In this document: positions 1 to 46,351 of the stretch, piece by piece
Numbering within the stretch: the first letter of the stretch is position 1
Layout of the letters: every line of letters starts with the position of its first letter
Assembly (NCBI GenBank): GCA_030639035.1
Contig: DAOWDM010000191.1
Span: 1-46,351, forward strand
DNA from: Alphaproteobacteria bacterium
GTDB taxonomy: Bacteria > Pseudomonadota > Alphaproteobacteria > DAOWDM01
Direction of reading: 5' to 3'
DNA: 46,351 nucleotides
The notes under the pieces: generated by a model
The model's database searches: none
What the model saw: the letters and a program-made list of their open reading frames with translations, nothing else
What the model was told of the DNA's origin: nothing
Translations under genes and position numbers: made by a program

Positions 1-1505
1 ATAGAGTAAATGTAATTGTTAGCCATAAAGAAAACAGCGGTGCACCTATTATATTCGAGGACAATCCAACTCAGCATAATCTTATAGGCAATATTGAAAG
101 ATCTCAGCATATGGGTGCACTTGTAACAGATTTTTCTTTGATAAATGCTGGTGCTATTCATAAGGCAAATGGAGGGTTTCTGATTATAGAAGCTCGCAAG
201 CTTTTCATGCACCCGTATGTATGGGAATCTTTAAAACGTGCTTTGCGTTCTAAACAAATAAAGCTTGAACGGCAGAGCCGAGAATCTAGTGTATTCAGCA
301 CTATTTCAATCGACCCTGAACCTATACCGCTTAATGTTAAGATAGTTCTTCTTGGAGAGCCTGACTTTTATTATATGCTGAGTGCAAATGACCCTGATTT
401 CAAAGAATTGTTTAAAGTTGAAGCTGATTTCAATTATGAAATGGATAGAACTAAAAAAAATGAGCATGGGCTTGCTGCAATTATTGCAGACTTTGTAAAA
501 AAGGAAAAACTAAGAAACCTTAATTCTCATGCTGTAGCTCGTATAATTGAATATTCTTCAAGACAGGCAGATGATACAGAAAAGCTTTCTTCTCATATCT
601 CTCTTATAACGAATCTTGTTCGTGAGTCTCATTATTACGCTAGATTAAGCAAGTCAAACATCATTGGAAGAACGCATGTAATACAGGCTATCGAGGCACA
701 ACTCTATCGCTCCAGCCGTATTCGTGACAGCATTCACGAGGAAATTATACGTGGAAATGTGATGATTCCAACGTCAGGAGAAGTTATAGGTCAAATAAAC
801 GGACTTGTTGTTTTAAGCTTTGGACGAGTATGTTTTGGCAAGCCCTCACGGATTACCTGTCAAGTTAGAATTGGTAAAGGTGATGTCGTCAACATTGAGC
901 GTGAAGTTCATTTAAGCGGACCTTTGCATTCCAAGGGCGTTCTTATTCTTTCATCTTTCCTTTCTACTCGTTTTGCGACAAATACTCCTTTGTCATTAGA
1001 AGCAAGTCTTGTCTTTGAACAGTCATACGGTGGAATTGATGGAGACTCTGCTTCGTCAACCGAACTTTATGCTATGCTTTCAGCTTTGGCTGAAGCTCCG
1101 ATAAAACAGTCTTTGGCAGTTACAGGCTCGGTAGATCAGTTCGGTCGTGTTCAGCCAATAGGTGGAGTCAACGAGAAAATTGAAGGTTTCTTTGATATTT
1201 GCAAAGAAAGAGGACTTACAGGAGAACATGGCGTTTTAATACCTAAAAGCAATGTCAAAAACTTGATGCTAAGACATGACATTGTTGAAGCTTCAGAAAA
1301 TGGTTTATTCCATGTTTATCCTATTGAAACAATAGACGAGGGAATAGAAATTCTTACTGGAATTCCAGCAGGTGAGCTTGATGAAGAAGGAAAATATCCT
1401 GTTGGTTCTATCAACAGACGTGTCGCCAGCAAACTAAATACCTTTTTCCGTAAAACTATGGCAATTCACTCACAAAGTGAAGGCTATGGAAAAGGAAGGA
1501 AATAG
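1..1505 (+). CDS. Lon-like ATP-dependent serine protease (AAA+/Lon-C family, YcbZ/LonH-like), 5' end outside window
   Basis: The frame of ORF 111..1505 stays open back to base 3 (RVNVIVSHKENSGAPIIFEDNPTQHNLIGNIERSQH-MGALV...), so the N-terminus lies upstream of the window. The C-terminal Lon proteolytic domain shows the Ser context DGDSASS and the Lys context PIGGVNEKIEGF. Confidence 0.8.
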   Translation, partial: RVNVIVSHKENSGAPIIFEDNPTQHNLIGNIERSQHMGALVTDFSLINAGAIHKANGGFLIIEARKLFMHPYVWESLKRALRSKQIKLERQSRESSVFSTISIDPEPIPLNVKIVLLGEPDFYYMLSANDPDFKELFKVEADFNYEMDRTKKNEHGLAAIIADFVKKEKLRNLNSHAVARIIEYSSRQADDTEKLSSHISLITNLVRESHYYARLSKSNIIGRTHVIQAIEAQLYRSSRIRDSIHEEIIRGNVMIPTSGEVIGQINGLVVLSFGRVCFGKPSRITCQVRIGKGDVVNIEREVHLSGPLHSKGVLILSSFLSTRFATNTPLSLEASLVFEQSYGGIDGDSASSTELYAMLSALAEAPIKQSLAVTGSVDQFGRVQPIGGVNEKIEGFFDICKERGLTGEHGVLIPKSNVKNLMLRHDIVEASENGLFHVYPIETIDEGIEILTGIPAGELDEEGKYPVGSINRRVASKLNTFFRKTMAIHSQSEGYGKGRK

Positions 1506-2953: not shown

Positions 2954-3115
2954 TGTCATGCTGAACTTGTTTGTGAGGGTCTTTCGCTTACGCTCAAGCT
3001 TCCCTATACCTTCGGTTTCAGTATCAATTCTGATTTAAGTTGATATGCAAAACGCAAATGTTGTCATTCTCAGCCCGAAAAACTGGATTCCCGAACTGTT
3101 GGTTCGAAAATGACA
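2954..3115. repeat. composite palindromic MITE-like repeat (interrupted type A plus shortened type B)
   Basis: 2954-2972 (TGTCATGCTGAACTTGTT) matches the 5' end of the type-A element (cf. 42175 and 43668). The expected continuation TTTCAGTATC resumes at 3016-3025 after a 43-nt insert (2973-3015). The insert contains TCGCTTACGC (2984-2993), the reverse complement of GCGTAAGCGA at 21031-21040. 3062-3115 (TGTCATTCTCAGCCC..CTGGATTCCC..AAAATGACA) is a shortened type-B copy (cf. 41346-41430). Confidence 0.75.
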
Positions 3116-13260: not shown

Positions 13261-13343
13261 CGTCATGCCTGTAAATGTTACTTAATTCGATGACAGTTTT
13301 TATTAAAAGAGTCATCGAATTAAGTAACATCTACAAGAATGAC
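13261..13343. repeat. palindromic MITE-like element, type D (long perfect hairpin core)
   Basis: The termini are CGTCATGCCTG and CAAGAATGAC. The core is a perfect 20-bp stem, 13275-13294 (ATGTTACTTAATTCGATGAC) pairing with 13311-13330, around a 16-nt loop. It is followed by the GGTGGTGGTG tail also seen next to other copies. Confidence 0.7.
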
Positions 13344-20983: not shown

Positions 20984-21304
20984 AGCTGTGTTATACAATG
21001 ATGTTGCTAGAGCATTTCGGCACTGTTATTGCGTAAGCGACTCCTCCGCCAAAGGCTGGGAATCCAGAATCTTTCTAAGAAAGACTGGATACCCGAAATT
21101 AAATTTTCGAGTATGACGAGTAGGGAGGAAGACGACAACAGAAACGACTCCAGTGTTTGAAAAGGCTAAAAGAAGAAAGACTGGATTCCCAACCATGATG
21201 GCTGAGAATGACAGGCGATGGTTATAATTACTACGTCGCTAACATTTCTTGCAAGGGCAGTAAAAACTGCTACGATTTTAGCAGTACTCTTGTATAACAC
21301 AGCT
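20984..21304. repeat. composite repeat nest bracketed by a 15-bp perfect inverted repeat
   Basis: AGCTGTGTTATACAA (20984-20998) and TTGTATAACACAGCT (21290-21304) bracket the whole convergent intergenic region. Inside, 21025-21119 is a type-B/C hybrid (GTTATTGCGTAAGCGAC..GGCTGGGAATCCAGA..GACTGGATACCC..GAGTATGACGA). 21179-21213 is a type-B right half (GACTGGATTCCCAACCATGATGGCTGAGAATGACA). Confidence 0.75.
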
Positions 21305-35570: not shown

Positions 35571-35653
35571 CCGTCATTCTGAATTTAGTTCAGGATCTCC
35601 TTTTTTGGTGGTAAAAGAAGAAAGTAGATTCTGAAACAAGTTCAGAATGACGG
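35571..35653. repeat. palindromic MITE-like element, type A (reverse orientation)
   Basis: The sequence is CCGTCATTCTGAATTTAGTTCAGGATCTCCTTTTTTGGTGG...GATTCTGAAACAAGTTCAGAATGACGG. It has 13-bp terminal inverted repeats (CCGTCATTCTGAA/TTCAGAATGACGG). It is the reverse complement of the 42173 and 43667 copies, with a few substitutions. Confidence 0.8.
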
Positions 35654-37759: not shown

Positions 37760-38392
37760 TTACTGGCTCACCCATAGAACTCTTGCAATCCACATGACTT
37801 TTTCTTTTGGAATAGTGCGGTCAGGGTGTTCAGGATTTAAGGATTTTAATTCTATTTGCATAGCTGTTTCACGCCGCAGTTCTTTGACCATAACTTCGCC
37901 TTCAGAAGTTCTAACCACAACTCTATCGCCACGTCTTATGGAGCTTTCAGGGGAAATAAGAAGCCTGTCTCCGTCTCGATATGCAGGTTCCATACTGCTT
38001 CCGCTTACTTCAAGGGCGTAAGCATTCGGGTCTTTGACATCAGGAAAATCTATGCCGTCCCAGCCTTCACTTCCTGCAGGATAACCAGCGTCATCAAAAT
38101 ACCCATCGTTTCCAGCCTGAGCGAAACCAATCAGCGGAATAGTATGAGCTGGTCCTGTATATTGTCCTTCTTCAGCATAACTTGCGAATTCAAATATTGA
38201 CATTTCAGCCGAACGTAGAAGCTTGTTAATGCTTTCCATGGACGGCCACCGTTTACGCCCCTCGGAACTGAATCGCTTGCTTTTATTAAATGCAGTTGGG
38301 TCAAGCCCAGCTTTTTTTGCAAGAGAAGAGGGGGAAACTCCCTTGATTTCAGCGAGTTTGTCAATGGCTTTCCATATCTCAGAATGTTTCAT
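37760..38392 (-). CDS. HTH + S24 peptidase repressor (CI/LexA-like, COG2932-type)
   Basis: The N-terminal HTH is VSPSSLAKKAGLDPTAFNKSKR. The C-terminal S24 autoprotease has the Ser context VSGSSMEPAYRDGDRLLISP and the Lys context VMVKEL. It is divergent from the phage-like genes. Confidence 0.85.
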   Translation of the reverse strand: MKHSEIWKAIDKLAEIKGVSPSSLAKKAGLDPTAFNKSKRFSSEGRKRWPSMESINKLLRSAEMSIFEFASYAEEGQYTGPAHTIPLIGFAQAGNDGYFDDAGYPAGSEGWDGIDFPDVKDPNAYALEVSGSSMEPAYRDGDRLLISPESSIRRGDRVVVRTSEGEVMVKELRRETAMQIELKSLNPEHPDRTIPKEKVMWIARVLWVSQ

Positions 38393-38431
38393 TGGTAAAT
38401 TCCTTTATTAAGATTTTCTACCTTAACTAGT

Positions 38432-38523
38432 ATAATACATAGGAAGTAAAATTATGCAATAGGAAAATATACTTAAATAAAGGTTGACATTCCTTGCTAC
38501 CAAGCATAGAACGTTGTTTCTAT
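38432..38523. promoter_or_regulatory. putative divergent promoter/operator region (genetic-switch-like)
   Basis: The rightward promoter has TTGACA (38484-38489), a 17-nt spacer and TAGAAC (38507-38512). The leftward promoter has TTGCAT (complement of 38454-38459), a 16-nt spacer and TATTAT (complement of 38432-38437). The half-site-like motif ATAGGAA occurs at 38439 and 38459, exactly 20 bp apart. The imperfect palindrome ATAGAA-N6-TTCTAT (38506-38523) overlaps the rightward -10. Confidence 0.4.
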
Positions 38524-38549
38524 TATTCGTTTAGATTGAAAGGTGAAAA

Positions 38550-38915
38550 ATGTCAGGTAGAAAAATATGTCCTCGTCCAATAGCAGAAACTCAAGTTGCT
38601 TTGTTCGAAAATTCAGAAGAAGCGTGGTTTTGGTATTGTCGTTCTCAAATACTTCGTGATTCAGGAGCAAGGCTTTCAGGAAATGATAATATTGCAGCAC
38701 GTCCTTGTGATGCAGATGATATATACAAAGCTGTAAAGTCTTTGCTTATAGCTGGTCGTTTGCGGAAATATCATTTAAAAACACTGTTGAAATTTGGCTA
38801 TTTATCGACTCCGCCAGATGATAGAGTTTCAGAGCAGAAAAAAGAATCGGGCTGGTGGAAAGAAGCACTGAACTTGCTTTCAACCATACTCCGACAAAAA
38901 AGAATGTTGCTGTAA
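38550..38915 (+). CDS. hypothetical phage-associated early protein
   Basis: This is a 121-aa ORF and the first gene transcribed away from the repressor. Its stop overlaps the next ATG (TAATG at 38913-38917). A possible helix-turn-helix-like segment is DDIYKAVKSLLIAGRLRKYHLKTLLKFG. I recognise no family. Confidence 0.5.
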   Translation: MSGRKICPRPIAETQVALFENSEEAWFWYCRSQILRDSGARLSGNDNIAARPCDADDIYKAVKSLLIAGRLRKYHLKTLLKFGYLSTPPDDRVSEQKKESGWWKEALNLLSTILRQKRMLL

Positions 38916-39337
38916 TGGATAATATCGCAACATATAAAGGCTGGCAGAAAGTATTTGTTGTTTTTAGCGGAGAAACAAATCTGTGGTGGTTGAAAATGCT
39001 AAAATCTGGTTTCAAACATTGCTTTGTTTCTTTGTATGATAATGGGCAGTGGGTGATTGTTGATCCAATGGCTCACCGCACAGAAATTGCGATTCTATCC
39101 GTTTCAGAGGGGTTTGATTTGATTTCTTGGTATAAATCTAAAGGAATGACTGTAGTGGAAACAGAAATTAAAACAGCTGTTTATTATTCTGCTCCATTTG
39201 GCTTTTTTTCTTGCGTAGAAGCAGTTAAGAGAGTTCTTGGTATCCACAAGAGAGGCATATATTCCCCGTATAAGTTGTATTTATTCCTAAAAAAGAAAGA
39301 AAACGGAAAAAAGTCCTTGACATTTGGAAATAAATGA
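38915..39337 (+). CDS. hypothetical protein, possible permuted NlpC/P60-LRAT-like thiol hydrolase
   Basis: The start is set at ATG 38915 (MDNIATYKGW), coupled to the upstream stop. The His block KHCFVSLYDNGQWVIVDP resembles the LRAT/H-Rev107 block HWAIYVGDGYVVHLAP as I recall it. A later Cys block, FFSCVEAVKRVLG, resembles the NCEHFV position. Confidence 0.5.
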   Translation: MDNIATYKGWQKVFVVFSGETNLWWLKMLKSGFKHCFVSLYDNGQWVIVDPMAHRTEIAILSVSEGFDLISWYKSKGMTVVETEIKTAVYYSAPFGFFSCVEAVKRVLGIHKRGIYSPYKLYLFLKKKENGKKSLTFGNK

Positions 39338-39410
39338 GATACTAATAATTCATCGAACGGGACAATTGCGTCTAAAACGTTTTTTGTTTTTACTTTTGCT
39401 CTTTCCTTCA

Positions 39411-39511
39411 CTGTCATTCTGAATTTAATTCAGAATCTATCTTTTTTAGATGTGAGTGAAAATGGATCCTGAATCAAGTTCAGGATGACAGTGGAGTTTG
39501 ACAGAATGACG
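39411..39511. repeat. palindromic MITE-like element, type A variant plus extra terminus fragment
   Basis: 39411-39491 is CTGTCATTCTGAATTTAATTCAGAATC...GGATCCTGAATCAAGTTCAGGATGACAG. It is in the same orientation as the 35571 copy. A GTGGAGTT tail follows, then a second terminus fragment, ACAGAATGACG (39501-39511). Confidence 0.75.
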
Positions 39512-39536
39512 TAAGTGGAGTTCGCAACAACAATAG

Positions 39537-39568
39537 AAAGCTGGGAGGGAAACCTTTCAGCTTTTTTT
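39537..39568 (+). terminator. strong rho-independent terminator 31 nt upstream of the portal ATG
   Basis: AAAGCTGGGAGG-GAAA-CCTTTCAGCTTT forms a 12-bp stem (two G-U pairs) with a GAAA tetraloop (39537-39564). It runs directly into a T7 tract (39562-39568). Confidence 0.7.
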
Positions 39569-39599
39569 ATGGAAATTTTTTATTTGGAGAATCTGTCGT

Positions 39600-41066
39600 A
39601 TGGACGAGAAAATTGAAGTCCTTATCAGAAGATATAACAAAGCCAAAGAAAGACGCTCATCATGGGAAAGTCATTGGCGTGAATGTTATGAATACGCTCT
39701 GCCACAAAGGGGTGGTGTTCTTTCGTCTGAATCAATCGGAGGAAAAAAGACCGATAAATTATTTGACGGTACTGCTCCTGATGCGGTTGATCAGCTTTCG
39801 GCAAGCCTTTTGTCTCAGTTGACACCGCCTTGGGCTAGGTGGTTTGGGCTGACGGCTGGCTCTGATTTATCTCCTGAAGAGCGAGATGAAGCAGGTGAAA
39901 TGCTGGACAAGGCAGGGGATATTTTACGCTCTAATTTTGACCGTTCAAATTTTGCGGTTGAGATGCACCAGTGTTTTTTAGACTTGGTAACGGTAGGAAC
40001 TGCTTCATTGCTTTTTGAAGAGTCTCCTTTGGGTGAGTCTAGTGCTTTTCGTTTTACGGCAGTTCCTTTGTCAGAATTAGCTGTTGAAGAAGGTGCTGGA
40101 GGGCGGATTGATACGACTTTTAGGCGTACAGAAATAACTTTGGAAATATTAAAAGTTCGTTTTCCAGCAGCAGAACTTCCGCCAGAACTTCTAGCGAGAA
40201 TGAAAAAAGAACCTGATTACAGGGTTGTTGTTATTGAAGCTGTTGTTCCTAGAATGACAGAAACAGGGCAGAACGGCTTTTCATATACGGCTTTTATTGA
40301 AGAAGATGCGGTAATTTTGAAAGAGGGAGTTTTTGACAACTCACCGTTTATAAATTTCCGCTGGCTTAAAGCTCCCGGTGAGATTTACGGCAGGTCGCCT
40401 GTAATGAAGTCTCTGCCTGATATAAAAACTGCCAACAAAGTTGTAGAGCTTGTTTTGAAGAATGCAACTATTGCAGTAACTGGAATTTGGCAGGCGGACG
40501 ATGACGGAGTGCTGAATCCTGCAAATATTAAGCTTGTTCCAGGTTCGATAATTCCAAAGGCTGTTGGTTCAAAAGGACTTACTCCTCTTGAAGCTCCAGG
40601 GCGTTTTGATATTTCTGAAATTGTGCTTGATGATTTAAGAAGCCGTATCCGTCATGCAATGCTTGTTGACCGTCTTGCACAGACAAATGCTCCTGCAATG
40701 TCTGCAACGGAAGTTTTAGAACGTTCTGCGGAAGTCGGGCGGATTCTGGGGGCTACTTACGGACGGCTTCAGTCAGAACTGCTTACTCCTCTGGTGTTGA
40801 GGGCGGTTGCTATTTTGCGGAGGCGTGGTGAAATTCCTGATTTAATAGTCGATGGTCGAATGGTTGAACTTCAGTACAAGTCACCTCTTGCATTGCAGCA
40901 GTCAAGACAGGACGCAAATAATATTGTCATGTGGCTTGATACGGTATCGAAAATGGGGGAGGAAGCTGCAAAAACCATAAATTCAGGTGCTGCTGCTCGT
41001 TGGCTAGGGCGGATTTTAGGAGTTCCTTCCGAACTCATAAACGAAACAGGAGGTGAAAATGTTTGA
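39600..41066 (+). CDS. phage portal (head-to-tail connector) protein, T7 gp8-like
   Basis: The N-terminal block is RRSSWESHWRECYEYALPQR. The blocks GEIYGRSPV and RLQSELLTPLVLR parallel T7 gp8 GESYGRSYI and ILSQELQLPLVRV, recalled from memory. The size is 488 aa. It is the first gene of the virion module. Confidence 0.88.
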   Translation: MDEKIEVLIRRYNKAKERRSSWESHWRECYEYALPQRGGVLSSESIGGKKTDKLFDGTAPDAVDQLSASLLSQLTPPWARWFGLTAGSDLSPEERDEAGEMLDKAGDILRSNFDRSNFAVEMHQCFLDLVTVGTASLLFEESPLGESSAFRFTAVPLSELAVEEGAGGRIDTTFRRTEITLEILKVRFPAAELPPELLARMKKEPDYRVVVIEAVVPRMTETGQNGFSYTAFIEEDAVILKEGVFDNSPFINFRWLKAPGEIYGRSPVMKSLPDIKTANKVVELVLKNATIAVTGIWQADDDGVLNPANIKLVPGSIIPKAVGSKGLTPLEAPGRFDISEIVLDDLRSRIRHAMLVDRLAQTNAPAMSATEVLERSAEVGRILGATYGRLQSELLTPLVLRAVAILRRRGEIPDLIVDGRMVELQYKSPLALQQSRQDANNIVMWLDTVSKMGEEAAKTINSGAAARWLGRILGVPSELINETGGENV

Positions 41067-41313
41067 ATCAGGCTGGTCGTGGATAAATGGAACTTCTGAG
41101 GAGGAAAAAAATCCTGATGAGAAAGATGTAACTGTCAGTTTTGCAAGGTGTTTTTCCAGCAGAGACGGCGAGAAAGCTCTTTCATACTTAAAGTCTATAA
41201 CGTCAGGGCGTTGCTTATCACCTGAAGTCAATGCAGAAGTCCTACGGCATTTAGAAGGACAGCGATGCCTTGTTTCCCATATTTCAATGCTGATTGAAAA
41301 AGGGAAAAGTTAA
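41059..41313 (+). CDS. hypothetical small phage protein
   Basis: The ATG at 41059 has AGGAGG 5 nt upstream and overlaps the portal stop (ATGTTTGA). The product is about 84 aa. I recognise no family. Confidence 0.45.
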   Translation: MFESGWSWINGTSEEEKNPDEKDVTVSFARCFSSRDGEKALSYLKSITSGRCLSPEVNAEVLRHLEGQRCLVSHISMLIEKGKS

Positions 41314-41345
41314 GGTGAAACGTTAGTGTCTGAATTCACTTCGTT

Positions 41346-41430
41346 GTCATTCTCAGCCCAAAGGGCTGGGAATCCAGACTTACTAAACAGAAAAAGGACT
41401 GGATTCCCAAGCCTACGGCTTGAGAATGAC
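41346..41430. repeat. palindromic MITE-like element, type B (full length)
   Basis: The sequence is GTCATTCTCAGCC-CAAAGGGCTGGGAATCCAGAC...GGACTGGATTCCCAAGCCTACGGCTTGAGAATGAC. It has nested inverted repeats: outer GTCATTCTCA/TGAGAATGAC and inner GGGAATCCAG/CTGGATTCCC. Confidence 0.8.
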
Positions 41431-41482
41431 GATTTGTGGTAGTCATTAAAAAACAAAAAATAACCAAAAGGAGAAAAAACTT

Positions 41483-42136
41483 ATGAATAACGAAAATATT
41501 ACTCAGAAACCTGAGAACGTACCTGAAAAATTTTGGGATAATGAGGTCGGTTCAGTTCGGATTGAATCATTGCTTAAATCATATCAAGAACTTGAAAAGA
41601 AATTAGGTTCTATGGTTTCTATGCCTAAAGTGCCTGAAAAGGCTGAAGATTACTCTATTGAAATAAGCCATGAGAAGCTTGAGGAAGATAAAGAAGTAAA
41701 TGAAATGCTTCACAAAGCAGGTTTTACTCCTGAACAGGTACAGCTTGTTTATGACTTGGCGGCTGAAAAACTTATGCCTGTAATTGAAAATATTGCAGCT
41801 GAATATGACACTAATAATCAGATTGAAAAACTTGTAAATCATTTCGGCAGTAAAGAAAAATGGGAGCAGGTTTCAAGACAGCTTAATGCTTGGGGACAGA
41901 AGAACCTGTCGGAAAACATTTTAGAAGCTCTTAGTTCTTCATATGAAGGAGTAATAACGCTTCACAAAATGATGACCTCAGAAGAACCAAGCATTAACGG
42001 AGGAAGTCAGCCAACAGACGGGCTGTTAAATGAACAACAGCTTAAAGGCATGATGAAAGATGCCAAATACTGGAGAGACGGCGACCCTGCTTATGTTGCG
42101 AAGGTAACGGCAGGATTTAAACGGCTTTATAAGTAG
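41483..42136 (+). CDS. probable capsid scaffolding protein
   Basis: This is an acidic, helical 217-aa protein located between the portal and major capsid genes, which is the gp9 position in T7-type modules. The assignment is positional and compositional. Confidence 0.6.
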   Translation: MNNENITQKPENVPEKFWDNEVGSVRIESLLKSYQELEKKLGSMVSMPKVPEKAEDYSIEISHEKLEEDKEVNEMLHKAGFTPEQVQLVYDLAAEKLMPVIENIAAEYDTNNQIEKLVNHFGSKEKWEQVSRQLNAWGQKNLSENILEALSSSYEGVITLHKMMTSEEPSINGGSQPTDGLLNEQQLKGMMKDAKYWRDGDPAYVAKVTAGFKRLYK

Positions 42137-42172
42137 AAAAAATCGTTTAACTCCGCTGTTACCACACCACTA

Positions 42173-42362
42173 CCGTCATGCTGAACTTGTTTCAGTATCC
42201 ACTTTTCTTCTTTTTCCACCAAAAAAGGAGATCCTGAAATGAATTCAGGATGACAGCGTGGTTGGTGGAGACAACAAACTCTCTGCCGTCATATTGAGGA
42301 GCAAAGCGACGTGAATATCTCGCATAAGAGATTCTCACGGGCTAAAGCCCTCAGAATGACGG
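42173..42362. repeat. two adjacent palindromic MITE-like elements (type A 42173-42257, type C 42286-42362)
   Basis: Type A is CCGTCATGCTGAACTTGTTTCAGTATCC...AAAAAAGGAGATCCTGAAATGAATTCAGGATGACAGC. Type C is CCGTCATATTGAGGAGCAAAGCGACG...CACGGGCTAAAGCCCTCAGAATGACGG. Both are followed by GTGG-rich tails (GTGGTTGGTGGAG and TGGAGTTGGTGGAGGGG) and preceded by CCACACCAC. Confidence 0.8.
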
Positions 42363-42513
42363 TGGAGTTGGTGGAGGGGTAATTTAAGGACAATCGGAAA
42401 ATCCGACCCTTTGTATATGCACATTGTTTGTGGCGGATATGACCTTATCCACAACTACAGGCAATGTTTTTTCAAAAACTATAAATTTTTAACAAACAAA
42501 GGGAGGGGACATA

Positions 42514-43347
42514 ATGTCCACTACAGTAGATCAATCATTTGTAAAACAGTTTGAAGCAGAAGTTCATATTGCATATCAGCAGATGGGCTCAAAACTAAGA
42601 GGAACAGTTCGTTCTAAAAACAACGTAAAAGGCTCTTCAACTACTTTTCAGAAAGTAGGCAAAGGAACTGCAAGCGTTAAGGCAAGGCATGGTCTTGTGC
42701 CTGTGATGAGTATTGACCACACTCCTGTTGAGTGTTCGCTATATGATTATTATGCAGGCGATTGGGTTGATGCTTTGGACGAGTTAAAAGTCAGCCTTGA
42801 TGAACGCCGTGTAATTGCAAGTGCTGGAGCTTATGCTTTGGGCAGAAAAACGGACGACCTGATTATTGACGGTCTAGCAGATGCTACAGAGACAGTTGGC
42901 GACTATTCTACAGGTCTTACAAAAGGCTTGATTCTTTCAGCTTTTGAGAAACTCAACAATGTAGATGTTCCTGATGACGGACAGCGTTTTGGTATTGTTG
43001 GAGCTCATCAATGGAATGAACTTCTTAACATTTCTGAGTTTTCAGATTCTGGCTTTATCGGGGAAGAATACCCATGGCTCAAAGGTACTGAAAGCCGTAA
43101 ATGGCTTGGTATAGTATGGATTTTACATACTGGTTTGCCTTTGGCTGATACGGATAATCGAGACTGTTTCATCTATCACAAAACGGCTGTAGGTCATGCT
43201 TCAGGGCAGGACGTGAAAACTGATGTTACATGGCATGGTGATCACGCAGCTCATTTCGTTAACAATTCAATGAGTCAAGGTGCTTCTCTTATCGATGCAA
43301 CAGGTATCGTTAAGATTAAAGTCGATGATGACGCAGCTATTAGCTAA
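42514..43347 (+). CDS. major capsid protein, T7 gp10-like (short form)
   Basis: It has a strong RBS (AAAGGGAGGGG). The N-terminal block FVKQFEAEVHIAYQ..RGTVRSKNNVKGSSTTFQKVGKGTA parallels T7 gp10 FLKVFGGEVLTAFAR..RHMVRSISSGKSAQFPVLGRTQA. The later block IYHKTAVGHA parallels FMHRSAVGTV. Both T7 sequences are from memory. Confidence 0.85.
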   Translation: MSTTVDQSFVKQFEAEVHIAYQQMGSKLRGTVRSKNNVKGSSTTFQKVGKGTASVKARHGLVPVMSIDHTPVECSLYDYYAGDWVDALDELKVSLDERRVIASAGAYALGRKTDDLIIDGLADATETVGDYSTGLTKGLILSAFEKLNNVDVPDDGQRFGIVGAHQWNELLNISEFSDSGFIGEEYPWLKGTESRKWLGIVWILHTGLPLADTDNRDCFIYHKTAVGHASGQDVKTDVTWHGDHAAHFVNNSMSQGASLIDATGIVKIKVDDDAAIS

Positions 43348-43362
43348 TAGGAGAATAAAAAT

Positions 43363-43632
43363 ATGGCTTTTTCAAACAATAATTTGAGTGTGCTTAGTTA
43401 CGCAAACGGTTTCACTCTATGGCATTACGTTACAACCGATACTGCTGCAACCGTTGATACCTCAGGGTATTTCAACAACGCATCAGACGTTGTCCGAGTT
43501 GGGGATATTGTTATCGCTAATGCAGACACAGCAGGAACTCCTGCAACAGGACTAATGCTGATTTCAAGCAACGACAACGGTGTTGTTGATGTGGACGATA
43601 TGACAGGTATTGGCGGAACTGATACGGATTAA
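43363..43632 (+). CDS. hypothetical small virion-module protein
   Basis: This is an 89-aa Thr/Asp/Gly-rich ORF 15 nt after the capsid stop. It shares its 15-nt translation initiation region with the gp11-like gene. Confidence 0.5.
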   Translation: MAFSNNNLSVLSYANGFTLWHYVTTDTAATVDTSGYFNNASDVVRVGDIVIANADTAGTPATGLMLISSNDNGVVDVDDMTGIGGTDTD

Positions 43633-43666
43633 TTGTATTGTTCCTACCACTACTAGTCCCCCTCTT

Positions 43667-43757
43667 CGTCATGCTGAACTTGTTTCAGTATCTACTTTCT
43701 TCGTTTTATACCAAAAAGGAGATCCTGAACTAAATTCAGGATGACGGTGGGGGGGGG
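43667..43757. repeat. palindromic MITE-like element, type A, with G9 tail
   Basis: 43667-43692 (CGTCATGCTGAACTTGTTTCAGTATC) is identical to 42174-42199. The element ends at ...GGAGATCCTGAACTAAATTCAGGATGACGG (43747). It is flanked by CCCCC (43657-43661) on the left and by a G9 homopolymer (43749-43757) on the right. Confidence 0.8.
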
Positions 43758-43820
43758 TAATGACGTGTGTGTGGTGTGAGGACAGTAATAAAAATTTCAA
43801 TACAATAGGAGAATAAAAGC

Positions 43821-44390
43821 ATGGCACTTAGCAGTATTGCGTTGTGTTCTCGGGCTTTGTTGAAGGTTGGGGCTAATACTATATCATCTTTTGATGAGGG
43901 AACGGCAGAGGCTGAAATTGCGGTTAATTTGTATCCGTCAGTCAGAGATGCTTTGATTTCTTCTCACCCTTGGAGCTTTGCTCTTGCACAGGCTTCATTG
44001 CCTAGATTAACGGCAGAACCTGTTGCAGATTTTGACTTTGCGTTTCAGCTTCCAACTGATTTCTTGCGTGTAATGTCAGCAGGAATAGCAGGGCGGGGAC
44101 GTGGAGCAAATTATCGGCTTGCTGAAAATAAGCTACATACAAACGTATCGCAGGTAGTTCTTACATACGTTTTCAGACCTGATGAGATGATTTTTCCTGC
44201 ATTTTTTGATCAGGTGCTTATTTCAAGACTGGCAGCGGAATTCTGCCTGCCTTTGACTGAAAGCACCAGCAGGGCTGAATTTCTTATCAAAATTTCAGAA
44301 GAAGAATTTAGAAGGGCAAAACTCATTGATGCTCAACAGGGAATCCCTGAGGCTATTGATGACTTTCCATTGATAGAGGTGCGTTCATGA
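43821..44390 (+). CDS. tail tubular protein A, T7 gp11-like
   Basis: The size is 189 aa. The N-terminal pattern ALLKVGANTISSFDEGTAEAEIAVNLYPSVRDALISSHPWSFA parallels T7 gp11 [43 protein letters not shown], recalled from memory. It sits in the gp11 position after the capsid gene. Confidence 0.72.
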   Translation: MALSSIALCSRALLKVGANTISSFDEGTAEAEIAVNLYPSVRDALISSHPWSFALAQASLPRLTAEPVADFDFAFQLPTDFLRVMSAGIAGRGRGANYRLAENKLHTNVSQVVLTYVFRPDEMIFPAFFDQVLISRLAAEFCLPLTESTSRAEFLIKISEEEFRRAKLIDAQQGIPEAIDDFPLIEVRS

Positions 44391-46291
44391 GCAGACTTTT
44401 TAGTGCTAAAACCAATTTTTCAGCTGGAGAATTAGCACCTGAAATGCTTGGGCGTGGAGATTTGCAAGCCTATGCAAACGGAGCTATGAAGCTAAAAAAC
44501 GTCTTTATTCACCCGACAGGAGGAGTTTCCAGACGGTCAGGGCTTCGTTATATAGGTGCCGCTCAGGGAAAAGGGCGTTTAATAGCTTTTGAATTCAACA
44601 CAGAACAGGCTTATTTGCTGGTATTTACAAATCAGCGAGTTGATGTTTTCAAAGACGGTGAAAATGTTGCAAACTTTGCTGTTCCATGGACGGAAGAGCA
44701 AATAAAGCAGATTAATTGGGCTCAAAGTGCGGACTCTTTGCTTGTAGTTCACCCTGACGTAAGCCCTAGGAAAATAACTAGAACTTCTCACACAGACTGG
44801 TCAATAAGCGAATGGCAGTTTTTTGAAAAAGACAACTGCATCAATCAGCCTTATTACAAGTTTGCAGGTGTGGACGTTACGATTCAAACGAGTGCTACAA
44901 CTGGAACTGTAACGCTTACCTCTTCGGCTTCGGTTTTTACATCTAATCATGTAGGGGTGCGAGTTCGGTTTTTAGGTGGAGAGGCGGAAATAACTTCTTA
45001 TTCTTCAGGAACTTCAGTTCAGGCTTCTGTGAAAAAGACTTTTTCTGGCACAGGCACAACTAAAGACTGGAAAGAGCAGAGTTTTTCAGATGTTCATGGT
45101 TTTGCAGCTTCGGTTACTCATCATCAGGATAGGCTTGTAATAGGCGGTTCAAGAGATTTGCCTAACCATTTATGGTTTTCTAAAACTTCGGATTTGATGA
45201 ATTTCGATTTAGGGGAAGGCTTGGACGATGAGTCTATAGAGTTCTCTATTCTATCTGACCAAGTGAACGCTATTCGAGCGGTTTTCTCAGGAAGACATTT
45301 GCAGGTGTTTACATCTGGTGCGGAATGGATGGTTTCAGGCGACCCTTTGACTCCTTCGGCTATTCAGTTGAAGCGTCAAACTAGGGTAGGCTCTGCTGTA
45401 AATAAGTATATTCCGCCAGTTGATGTAGACGGAGCGACTTTGTTTATATCAGGAAACGGCTTGGAGCTTCGTGAATTTCTGTTCACTGATGTAGAGCAGG
45501 CATATCAGGCTAATGACTTGGCTATGCTCTCTAGGCATTTGATGAATAGCCCTGTTGATCAGGATTATGATTCACAACGCAGACTGCTAACAATTGTTAT
45601 GGAAAACGGTAATATCGCAACCGTAACGAATTATAGAGCTGAACAAGTTACAGCTTGGACAGGACATTCTACTGATGGAAAATTCCTTTCCGTCGCAACA
45701 ATAGGCAGTGACACTTATGTTCTGGTTGAACGTGGGGAGAATGTTTTTGTTGAAATTTTCGATGATGACTTTGGAACAGACTGCGGAATAACTGGAGAAG
45801 ATGAAACTCCAAAAGACGTATGGTCGGGGCTTTCTCATCTTGAAGGAAAGACTGTAAAAGTGCTGGCTGATGGGGCGGTTGTACCTAATCAGACTGTTAC
45901 AGATGGAATTATTACGCTTCCGTATCCAGTTAGCAATATACAAGTTGGTTTGGCTTATACACATATAATATCACCGCTTCCGCCAATGATTACGGCGGCA
46001 GGCAGTGTTAGACCTCCTAAAAGCGTACGTCTTGTAGAGGCCTCTTTCAGAGTGCTTAAAACTTCATCTATGGAAGTTGATACGGGTCGAGGAATTAAGC
46101 CTGTGCTTTTGAAAAGATTGGGAGTTGAAGGCGTGCTTGATTCTGCTCCGTCAGAATATTCTGGCGATGTTCGTATTAGAGCTTTTGGGTGGATAAGAGA
46201 TTTTATGCAGCCGTCATGGAAAATAGAGGGAGATAAACCTCTTTCCTGCACGGTTCTTTCGGTAACAACAGAAATGAAGGTGAATGACTGA
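44387..46291 (+). CDS. tail tubular protein B, T7 gp12-like
   Basis: It overlaps the gp11-like stop (ATGA at 44387-44390). The 634-aa protein is beta-rich. The N-terminal pattern is NFSAGELAPEMLGRGDLQAYANGAMKLKNVFIHPTGGVSRRSGL. Its position and size are consistent with a nozzle/tubular B protein. Confidence 0.68.
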   Translation: MSRLFSAKTNFSAGELAPEMLGRGDLQAYANGAMKLKNVFIHPTGGVSRRSGLRYIGAAQGKGRLIAFEFNTEQAYLLVFTNQRVDVFKDGENVANFAVPWTEEQIKQINWAQSADSLLVVHPDVSPRKITRTSHTDWSISEWQFFEKDNCINQPYYKFAGVDVTIQTSATTGTVTLTSSASVFTSNHVGVRVRFLGGEAEITSYSSGTSVQASVKKTFSGTGTTKDWKEQSFSDVHGFAASVTHHQDRLVIGGSRDLPNHLWFSKTSDLMNFDLGEGLDDESIEFSILSDQVNAIRAVFSGRHLQVFTSGAEWMVSGDPLTPSAIQLKRQTRVGSAVNKYIPPVDVDGATLFISGNGLELREFLFTDVEQAYQANDLAMLSRHLMNSPVDQDYDSQRRLLTIVMENGNIATVTNYRAEQVTAWTGHSTDGKFLSVATIGSDTYVLVERGENVFVEIFDDDFGTDCGITGEDETPKDVWSGLSHLEGKTVKVLADGAVVPNQTVTDGIITLPYPVSNIQVGLAYTHIISPLPPMITAAGSVRPPKSVRLVEASFRVLKTSSMEVDTGRGIKPVLLKRLGVEGVLDSAPSEYSGDVRIRAFGWIRDFMQPSWKIEGDKPLSCTVLSVTTEMKVND

Positions 46292-46351
46292 TGGGAGTAG
46301 TACCAATAATAACAGTAGCAGTTGCGGCTTTTACCGCAAATGAAACTATAA
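46291..46351 (+). CDS. start of next virion-module ORF (3' end outside window)
   Basis: The ATG overlaps the preceding stop (TGATG at 46289-46293). Translation gives MGVVPIITVAVAAFTANETI..., which is hydrophobic. Only 20 codons are visible. Confidence 0.3.
   Translation, partial: MGVVPIITVAVAAFTANETI

Follow-up and report, generated by a model that had tools for sequence, protein, structure and literature searches.

CGTC-tagged REP dimers of host type in the spacers of a phage-derived virion operon of an uncultured alphaproteobacterium

Repetitive extragenic palindromes (REPs) with a CGTC tag form a superfamily that takes in the dRS3 repeats of Neisseria and the Rickettsia palindromic element (RPE) units, and that is found mainly in Alphaproteobacteria, in spacers that follow coding regions and separate unidirectional or convergent open reading frames (ORFs) (Di Nocera, De Gregorio & Rocco 2013, BMC Genomics 14:522, PMC3733652). 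Each unit is composed of a CGTC tag, often TGTC (variants TGTC/CCTC), a stem of 8-9 bp with AT in positions 1-2, a 4-5 nt loop and a tail reading CCA. The units mostly form head-to-head dimers with the tags outside and spacers of 20-100 nt, at times nested in outer palindromes, and have no associated transposase; no REP-associated tyrosine transposase (RAYT) or other HUH gene is known for them, and phage or prophage is nowhere mentioned in their description (PMC3733652). Here we describe elements of this kind in a phage-like gene cluster on contig DAOWDM010000191.1, the whole of which (46,351 nt; "the window" below) was analysed. The contig belongs to a metagenome-assembled genome (MAG) of an uncultured alphaproteobacterium; ordinary chromosomal genes fill positions 1 to ~37.4 kb, and the cluster begins at 37.76 kb.

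Other systems share single traits with this locus. In E. coli, the REPs and bacterial interspersed mosaic elements (BIMEs) of the malE-malF and hisJ-hisQ spacers are likewise inverted pairs of palindromic units inside operons, just past stop codons, where they act as mRNA 3′ stabilisers and attenuators; they differ from the elements described here in unit sequence, in their GTAG tag and in having a RAYT transposase. The Pseudomonas REPINs (REP doublets forming hairpins) of Bertels and Rainey reportedly behave as replicative units. As in the present elements, the inverted doublet forms one long hairpin; the REPIN-RAYT system has GTAG-type heads and a cognate RAYT gene, whereas here the tags are CGTC and no RAYT/HUH gene was found among the 30 larger window ORFs. 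Long intercistronic RNA hairpins in polycistronic transcripts are also known from the Correia/NEMIS elements of Neisseria and from phage T7, in which RNase III cleavage sets differential mRNA stability. Correia elements are of the miniature inverted-repeat transposable element (MITE) type, with terminal inverted repeats and a TA duplication, and the T7 sites are unique phage-encoded sequences, not genome-wide repeats; the hairpins at the present locus are known from predicted folds. Finally, the density of host intergenic repeats is an indicator of residence time in P. fluorescens, with its repeat deserts, and prophages and recently acquired islands are normally without host REP-like repeats (Silby et al. 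2009, PMC2718517). The cluster described here contrasts with such deserts, its repeat density being ~4 times that of the local host DNA. As far as their sequences tell, the repeats themselves are of a known kind; what is unusual, and new for the CGTC superfamily, is their location in a phage-derived virion operon, and any function there is at most predicted.

CGTC-tagged REP dimers in the gaps of the virion module

The virion module has four gaps longer than 100 nt, at 39338-39599 (262 nt), 41314-41482 (169 nt), 42137-42513 (377 nt) and 43633-43820 (188 nt), which are occupied by five palindromes of the form GTCAT...ATGAC; the remaining module junctions in the window are overlaps or 15 nt. These positions agree with those of a preliminary description of the locus, as does its count of four out of eight repeat loci of the window in the module. 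A contig from another sample, L001, runs on past position 46351 as an identical continuation and contains two more large gaps, of 223 and 126 nt, with one element each (type A and type C), so that in window and L001 together 6/6 large gaps of the cluster are occupied, by seven elements. The distance from the stop codon to the first element is 32-38 nt in three out of four gaps of the module. When the element cores are removed, 185, 84, 224 and 110 nt of gap are left, part of which is ancestral regulatory spacer, not element-derived. The elements are the following (palindromes and dimers are given without strand):

39412-39490: type-A REP head-to-head dimer, tags TGTC, situated within the transcribed leader after the late promoter and before the leader terminator; fold -46.6 kcal/mol, z -6.2
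39502-39510, + strand: orphan REP 3′ end (CAGAATGAC), remnant of a further unit
41345-41431: type-B REP head-to-head dimer between the Bbp19-like and scaffold genes; fold -51.6 kcal/mol, z -8.0
42174-42255: type-A REP head-to-head heterodimer, 38 nt past the scaffold stop codon
42287-42361: type-C palindrome with CGTC tags; -48.9 kcal/mol, z -6.1; its sole other copy is at L001 6410-6488
43667-43746: type-A REP head-to-head heterodimer, 35 nt past the stop codon of the 89-aa gene and within C-rich/G-rich outer flanks; -58.9 kcal/mol with flanks

The type-A end pattern GATNCTGAANNNNNTTCAGNATGAC has eight matches in the window against 0.00 expected, and the type-B core CTGGATNCCC six against 0.08. 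Folding of the elements, proposed in the preliminary description, gave plus-strand RNA structures with energies between -34 and -59 kcal/mol and z-scores between -5 and -12.

L001 and L002, both contigs from other samples, match the window at 100% and L004 does so at 99.8%, indicating that the arrangement of the elements is real and no assembly artefact. L003, a scaffold of the same species, is also 100% identical to the window across its aligned 2716 nt. Its ends (1-159 and 2876-2932) do not match; this metagenome scaffold is probably chimeric rather than derived from a rearranged strain.

By their anatomy, the elements are head-to-head dimers of CGTC-tagged REPs, members of the known superfamily. 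From outside inward, each unit begins with a (C/T)GTC tag and a stem opening with A-T, then T-A; after a short loop the stem returns, and the unit closes with a C(C/T)(A/C) tail. Counted over the five module elements and a host copy at 35572-35652, the tag is CGTC on 8/12 unit ends and TGTC on 4/12. Type-A stems (ATNCTGAA/TTCAGNAT) are 8-9 bp long with AT first, and enclose 5-nt loops (CTTGT, TTTAG, ACAAG and others), or 3-nt loops if the stem is read one pair longer. Type-B units (ATTC...GGGAAT CCAG) are like dRS3/CGTC-1 save for their 11-bp stems, which also begin with AT and enclose 3-nt loops. The tails read CCA (42200), CTA (43693 and 39438) and CTC (35598), and CCAG in type B. A scan for dimers found five of them, four in the module and the host copy at 35572-35652, and these as well as type C all have the tags outside; in types A and B the spacer between units measures 21-30 nt and has one T-rich and one A-rich side. 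Type-A copies lie in both orientations within the operon, and those of the cluster have a G...T stem variant and G-rich/C-rich flanks in common. A larger conserved element around the type-A copies was considered and rejected, as the flanks align poorly beyond the CACY and RGTG that directly adjoin the elements.

The elements thus match the published superfamily in their (C/T)GTC tag, AT-first stem (8-9 bp in type A), CCA-like tail and head-to-head arrangement (the loop, too, would fit in type A when read as 5 nt), as well as in their position in unidirectional or convergent gaps downstream of ORFs, their alphaproteobacterial bias, the nesting in outer palindromes and the lack of a linked transposase. 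Type A appears to fit this description well, types C and D (the latter an 82-nt palindrome of the host part, listed below) only in part: the type-C left unit and the whole of type D lie outside the four published families. Rfam scans (gathering threshold and E-value) passed only the tRNA, with sub-threshold matches to spurious miRNA hairpin models, and a literature search with sequence strings and spurious-peptide strings gave no match.

Units of the same build are widespread. Inverted pairs with the same tag, loop and tail and with other stems occur, among the matches listed, in Sphingomonas, Novosphingobium and Sandarakinorhabdus (Sphingomonadales), and paired units also in an Elusimicrobiota single amplified genome (SAG), a gammaproteobacterial MAG and an Ignavibacterium MAG; the scan of genome contigs used a loose, 18-base degenerate pattern with many single chance matches. 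The exact 25-mer GTCATGCTGAACTTGTTTCAGTATC, the left unit of the module, is present in >120 metagenome stretches of gut, marine and other origin. In the 3.7 Mb of loci fetched we counted 655 well-formed 25-nt units, versus 0-1 in shuffles, with covarying stems (CTGAA/TTCAG, CCGAA/TTCGG, CCGGA/TCCGG and GCGGG/CCCGC). Because units are spread over phyla and metagenomes, the repeat family is, on this distribution, specific neither to this locus nor to phages. Copies of GTCATGCTGAACTTGTTTCAGTATC (L253-L332) usually have as their partner a REP unit whose stem sequence differs, and the conservation of tag, loop and tail across environments is striking for a repeat without known transposase. Each of two viral-labelled contigs, IMGVR_UViG_3300028845_000195 (L176/L154) and IMGVR_UViG_3300010223_000008 (L169/L198), has 8-9 REP-like units on the same strand, set within long arrays in which palindromic units of various kinds are mixed and which resemble neisserial intergenic mosaic element (NIME)-type mosaics; these contigs may be misclassified host DNA or REP-rich phage genomes.

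Host copies, enrichment in the module and empty sites in relatives

The same families occupy four gaps in the host part of the window:

3063-3114: host type-B copy, shortened, in a convergent gap
13262-13343: type-D 82-nt near-perfect palindrome with GTCAT/ATGAC ends, 3′ of a xerC/D-like gene; -46.9 kcal/mol, z -11.7; kin to the others by its termini only
21040-21213: host type-B cluster of one degenerate dimer and one single unit, in a convergent gap
35572-35652: host type-A dimer in opposite orientation, between a 2-hydroxyacid dehydrogenase gene and dapD

The dimer by dapD is 92% complementary to the copy at 42204-42254. The type-D palindrome misfits the REP-dimer pattern: it has 39-nt arms, carries GTCAT/ATGAC at outer and inner arm ends, and lies 50 nt 3′ of the xerC/D-like gene. 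All eight window loci are in unidirectional or convergent gaps, and none of the six divergent gaps is occupied. The elements are thus of host type, as the preliminary description had it, and are not confined to the cluster.

Occupied junctions are more frequent in the module (4/8) than in the host part of the window (4/38; Fisher p=0.02), and with L001 added 6/13 cluster junctions are occupied (p=0.011). Per kb, the excess of elements in the module over adjacent host DNA is ~4-fold (conditional binomial p 0.02-0.05). Copies were counted in the 46 kb window (8 loci) plus L001 (2), the host sample amounting to 37 kb; extension into further host DNA by means of a flanking host protein gained ~1 kb. 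The density is therefore above that of the neighbouring host DNA rather than equal to it, a point on which the preliminary description had made the colonisation of this DNA by host repeats depend.

We then compared orthologous virion modules for empty sites, as the same description had proposed. Homologues of the capsid protein number 4,592 at E<=1e-20, the best with 62-80% identity. Clusters were fetched for seven homologues and 64 IMG/VR loci; the comparison took in ~74 other loci (roughly 950 kb). Synteny of relatives with the window is clear. No REP units were found in the relatives fetched by protein identity (73-80% capsid identity), and REP head-to-head dimers occur in only 2 of the ~74 other loci, ~72/74 being element-free. 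The lengths of the orthologous junctions are as follows:

Bbp19-like to scaffold gene: 24-40 nt in relatives, 169 nt in the window
184-aa to 441-aa gene: 9-26 nt in relatives, 223 nt in L001
junction before TerS (small terminase subunit): 16-37 nt in relatives, 126 nt in L001
scaffold to capsid gene: 61-242 nt in relatives, 377 nt in the window
junction after the capsid/89-aa block: 67-101 nt in relatives, 188 nt in the window

Since the orthologous junctions of the relatives are element-free and shorter, the elements were most simply inserted in this lineage after its split from them. Of the six large gaps, three would owe their existence to the insertions, and the other three would be ancestral regulatory spacers made longer by them. 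The preliminary description had supposed that the operon would be packed as tightly as that of a podovirus without the elements; this holds for the Bbp19-to-scaffold junction (24-40 nt in relatives) and for the two junctions beyond the window (9-26 and 16-37 nt), but not for the pre-portal, scaffold-to-capsid and post-capsid spacers, which are ancestral (61-242 nt in relatives).

The two loci with dimers, L393 and L437, are GC-rich relatives. In L393 (5334-5451) a CGTC REP head-to-head dimer lies in the scaffold-to-capsid gap, and in L437 (907-1004) one lies 25 nt after the stop codon of the 89-aa gene, with a CTTGT loop as in the window. Both have GC-rich, host-type stems, units of the GTCATGCCCGGACTTGTTCCGGGCATC type, and C-rich/G-rich outer palindromes like those of the window; the two lineages carry their dimers independently. 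The idea that the outer flanks are remnants of the relatives' terminators was rejected: they have the opposite polarity, C-rich 5′ and G-rich 3′, with no T-run, and similar flanks surround REP dimers in unrelated genomes.

We consider it probable that the host's own CGTC-REP dimers colonised the spacers of a chromosomally fixed T7-like cluster after divergence of the lineage. Colonisation was among the possibilities raised in the preliminary description, and it is supported by the host copies, the empty sites and the ~4-fold density. The REP population of the host genome would have spread into the intercistronic spacers of the head-tail-lysis-terminase cluster, and insertion would have been tolerated in an operon that is presumably repressed most of the time and whose spacers lie downstream of stop codons. 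On late transcription each dimer would fold into an RNA hairpin of 25-35 bp. Going by what is known of E. coli REP/BIMEs, of Correia elements and of the T7 sites, the likeliest role of such a hairpin would be to block 3′→5′ exonuclease and so protect the 3′ ends upstream of it, or else to serve for RNase III cleavage or attenuation. The mRNA around the scaffold and capsid genes could in this way be divided into segments of differing stability; this effect on the RNA would be a side-effect, perhaps recruited, perhaps not.

The nature of the cluster is consistent with this reading. In relatives it spans ~13 kb and comprises an S24 repressor, two small genes, T7-like head and tail genes, lysis genes (GTA_holin_3TM, Hydrolase_2 or lysozyme), TerS and TerL (large terminase subunit); it extends over 37760-46351 of the window and on into L001, over 2328-15981 of L006, 4773-18883 of L008 and 5568-18609 of L376. 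No integrase or replication genes were found in the clusters of L006/L007, L008 and L376, and in L006, L008 and L376, which are contigs of alphaproteobacterial MAGs, housekeeping genes lie on both sides; the window shows the left flank only. The capsid protein of the nearest cultured phage (Pelagibacter phage Hodr) is 44% identical, versus 70-80% for chromosomal homologues. In L005 and L377 the cluster is split or decayed. Gene content and flanks, as read from the genes alone, fit a gene transfer agent (GTA) in L006, L008 and L376. On these grounds the cluster is probably a GTA-like domesticated podovirus, and would at least be a long-resident defective prophage. Long residence is also indicated by a REP density at or above host level, whereas prophages are normally REP-free. 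The earlier suggestion of long residence or domestication thus fits a cluster family that has no integrase or replication genes and is flanked on both sides, in relatives, by housekeeping genes.

Several points weigh against this interpretation. The lack of integrase and replication genes in the window's own cluster is taken over from the relatives, because L001 ends 150 nt beyond TerL and the right end of the cluster is not visible. Both the enrichment and the genome-wide copy number are drawn from a small sample, 37 kb of host DNA. Types B and C depart from the published CGTC families, type B by its 11-bp stems and 3-nt loops and type C by a left unit that makes a poor hairpin, and type C is found inside the cluster only, in two copies (window and L001).

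If the colonisation by host dimers is accepted, host REPs in a phage-derived operon are simple sequence evidence for long residence and support the ~13-kb cluster as domesticated (GTA-like). Moreover, element-free orthologues locate each insertion and could help to define the target preference and spread of CGTC REPs, for which CACY and RGTG, flanking GTCAT...ATGAC inside C-rich/G-rich outer palindromes, are a candidate.

Recruitment, mobility and phage origin as alternatives

Compatible with colonisation, though doubtful, is the possibility that the late operon has put the REP dimers to use at the RNA level, as stabilisers, processing sites or attenuators, with the dimers taking over the role of terminators around the capsid gene. 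In the relatives, canonical terminators of a hairpin and a T-run are present in most scaffold-to-capsid spacers and in all post-capsid spacers; the corresponding spacers of the window hold REP dimers instead, with no convincing canonical terminator. L393 and L437 independently have their dimers at exactly these two capsid-flanking junctions, the hairpins are very stable, and the ribosome-binding sites of the genes 3′ of the elements are intact. However, three of the six occupied junctions are 9-40 nt long and terminator-free in relatives, so that there was no function to replace at them. Furthermore, the type-A copies lie in both orientations within the operon, such dimers occur in just 2 of ~74 other loci, and the capsid-flanking gaps are simply the largest and most permissive. 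Note that the hairpins are not canonical terminators, since no U-run follows directly: single-unit hairpins are rich in A+T, with 3-5 nt between them and the T-rich spacer, and the full dimer hairpins have no U-run behind them. Comparison of host gaps with and without REPs found few convincing terminators. A more specific version appears unlikely to us: that host REP dimers were recruited, here and independently in at least two GC-rich lineages (L393 and L437), as hairpins on either side of the capsid gene in a domesticated GTA-type cluster of T7-like build, where they replace the intrinsic terminators of its relatives. If true, a selfish genome-wide repeat would have been turned into a stoichiometry-setting signal of a virion operon.

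The elements were called MITE-like in the preliminary description, and with 73-85 nt, inverted termini, many copies and intergenic positions they do resemble classical MITEs, that is, deletion derivatives of insertion sequences (ISs) with terminal inverted repeats and target-site duplications. This origin is very improbable. No direct target-site duplications flank any copy, the immediate flanks being inverted-complementary (CACY-GTCAT...ATGAC-RGTG, hyphens marking the element ends), which makes the term imprecise. Each end is an autonomous hairpin, and the stem covaries between subtypes with tag, loop and tail kept, which is the behaviour of REPs. No transposase was found among the window ORFs scanned, nor a Y1 or HUH transposase among the 30 larger ones, and none is known for CGTC-tagged REP head-to-head dimers, the more accurate designation.

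That the phage, or a GTA-like particle, is the vector or source spreading the repeat family, a further proposal of the preliminary description, seems more improbable still. IMG/VR contigs do hold many units of the superfamily (>120 stretches), and a GTA would package host DNA, REPs included. Yet genes for integrase or replication are missing from the cluster family itself, ~72/74 related loci are element-free, the superfamily occurs in several phyla that do not carry this cluster, and many of the IMG/VR matches are prophage predictions with host flanks, or REP arrays.

Finally, that the elements are phage-specific regulatory repeats of the virion module (operators or late-gene control hairpins) is scarcely credible: their density is highest in the module, type C occurs in the cluster only and the cluster's type-A copies have a stem variant and flanks in common, but types A and B also lie in host gaps by dapD, lptF/G-xerC/D and other housekeeping genes, orthologous modules in relatives are without elements, and the exact unit is present in >120 unrelated metagenome contigs.

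Late promoter, leader and gene content of the cluster

The genes and signals of the cluster in the window are the following:

37760-38392, - strand: S24 (LexA/CI-like) repressor gene, left edge of the cluster
38550-39337, + strand: two small conserved genes (121 and 160 aa), 5′ of the late promoter
39317-39345, + strand: promoter-like site TTGACA-17-TACTAA, located where the o160 gene ends and common to L006, L008, L009 and L376
39535-39569, + strand: canonical hairpin and T-run terminator in the leader, just 5′ of the portal gene; -19 kcal/mol, z -5.6
39600-41313, + strand: portal gene (PF12236) and Bbp19-like gene
41483-42136, + strand: T7-type scaffold gene
42514-43632, + strand: major capsid gene (PF19821) and 89-aa gene
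43821-46291, + strand: tail tubular A and tail tubular B genes

An NCBIfam scan of the cluster proteins returned no names, save one weak LexA-like match. The host part contains genes for a Lon-like protease, LptD, LptF/G, a XerC/D-like recombinase, MnmA, gamma-glutamyltranspeptidase, DapE, DapD and a tRNA. The G+C content of the cluster (39001-46351) is 0.39-0.44 versus 0.33-0.42 in the flanking host DNA (1-37000), and its GC skew is steadily positive, unlike that of the host DNA over the same two intervals.

The promoter-like consensus TCCTTGACA-N17-TACNNN lies at the 3′ end of the o160-family gene in the window and in four relatives (L006 ~3865, L008 ~6718, L009 ~427, L376 ~7145). The pre-portal gap is a conserved leader with the REP dimer at 39412-39490 inside it. 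That the conserved promoter is followed by a leader containing a strong terminator, ahead of the first structural gene, suggests that the late operon may be under antitermination control. In relatives, a small protein of 66-74 aa is encoded directly 5′ of the portal gene (L008 6900-7124, L006 7176-7376, L376 7260-7463), ending in ...LLGE in L006 and L008; no homologue of these L006/L008 proteins was detectable in the window, where the REP dimer and the terminator fill 39338-39599.

Some copies of the cluster are fragmented, namely L377 8053-20768 and L005 10001-20525. In L377, TerL is split into two ORFs with dnaB and helix-turn-helix (HTH) genes between them, and the portal gene is shortened; in L005, 7 kb of DNA encoding a 1352-aa HTH protein separates the capsid and 89-aa genes from the tail tubular genes. 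In L006 the terminase/lysis block stands before the portal gene, not after the tail genes. In L009 (2-442), the closest relative (capsid 80%), the place 5′ of the capsid gene is taken by an o160 homologue bearing the late promoter instead of by the scaffold gene; the module order has therefore been rearranged in the L009 lineage.

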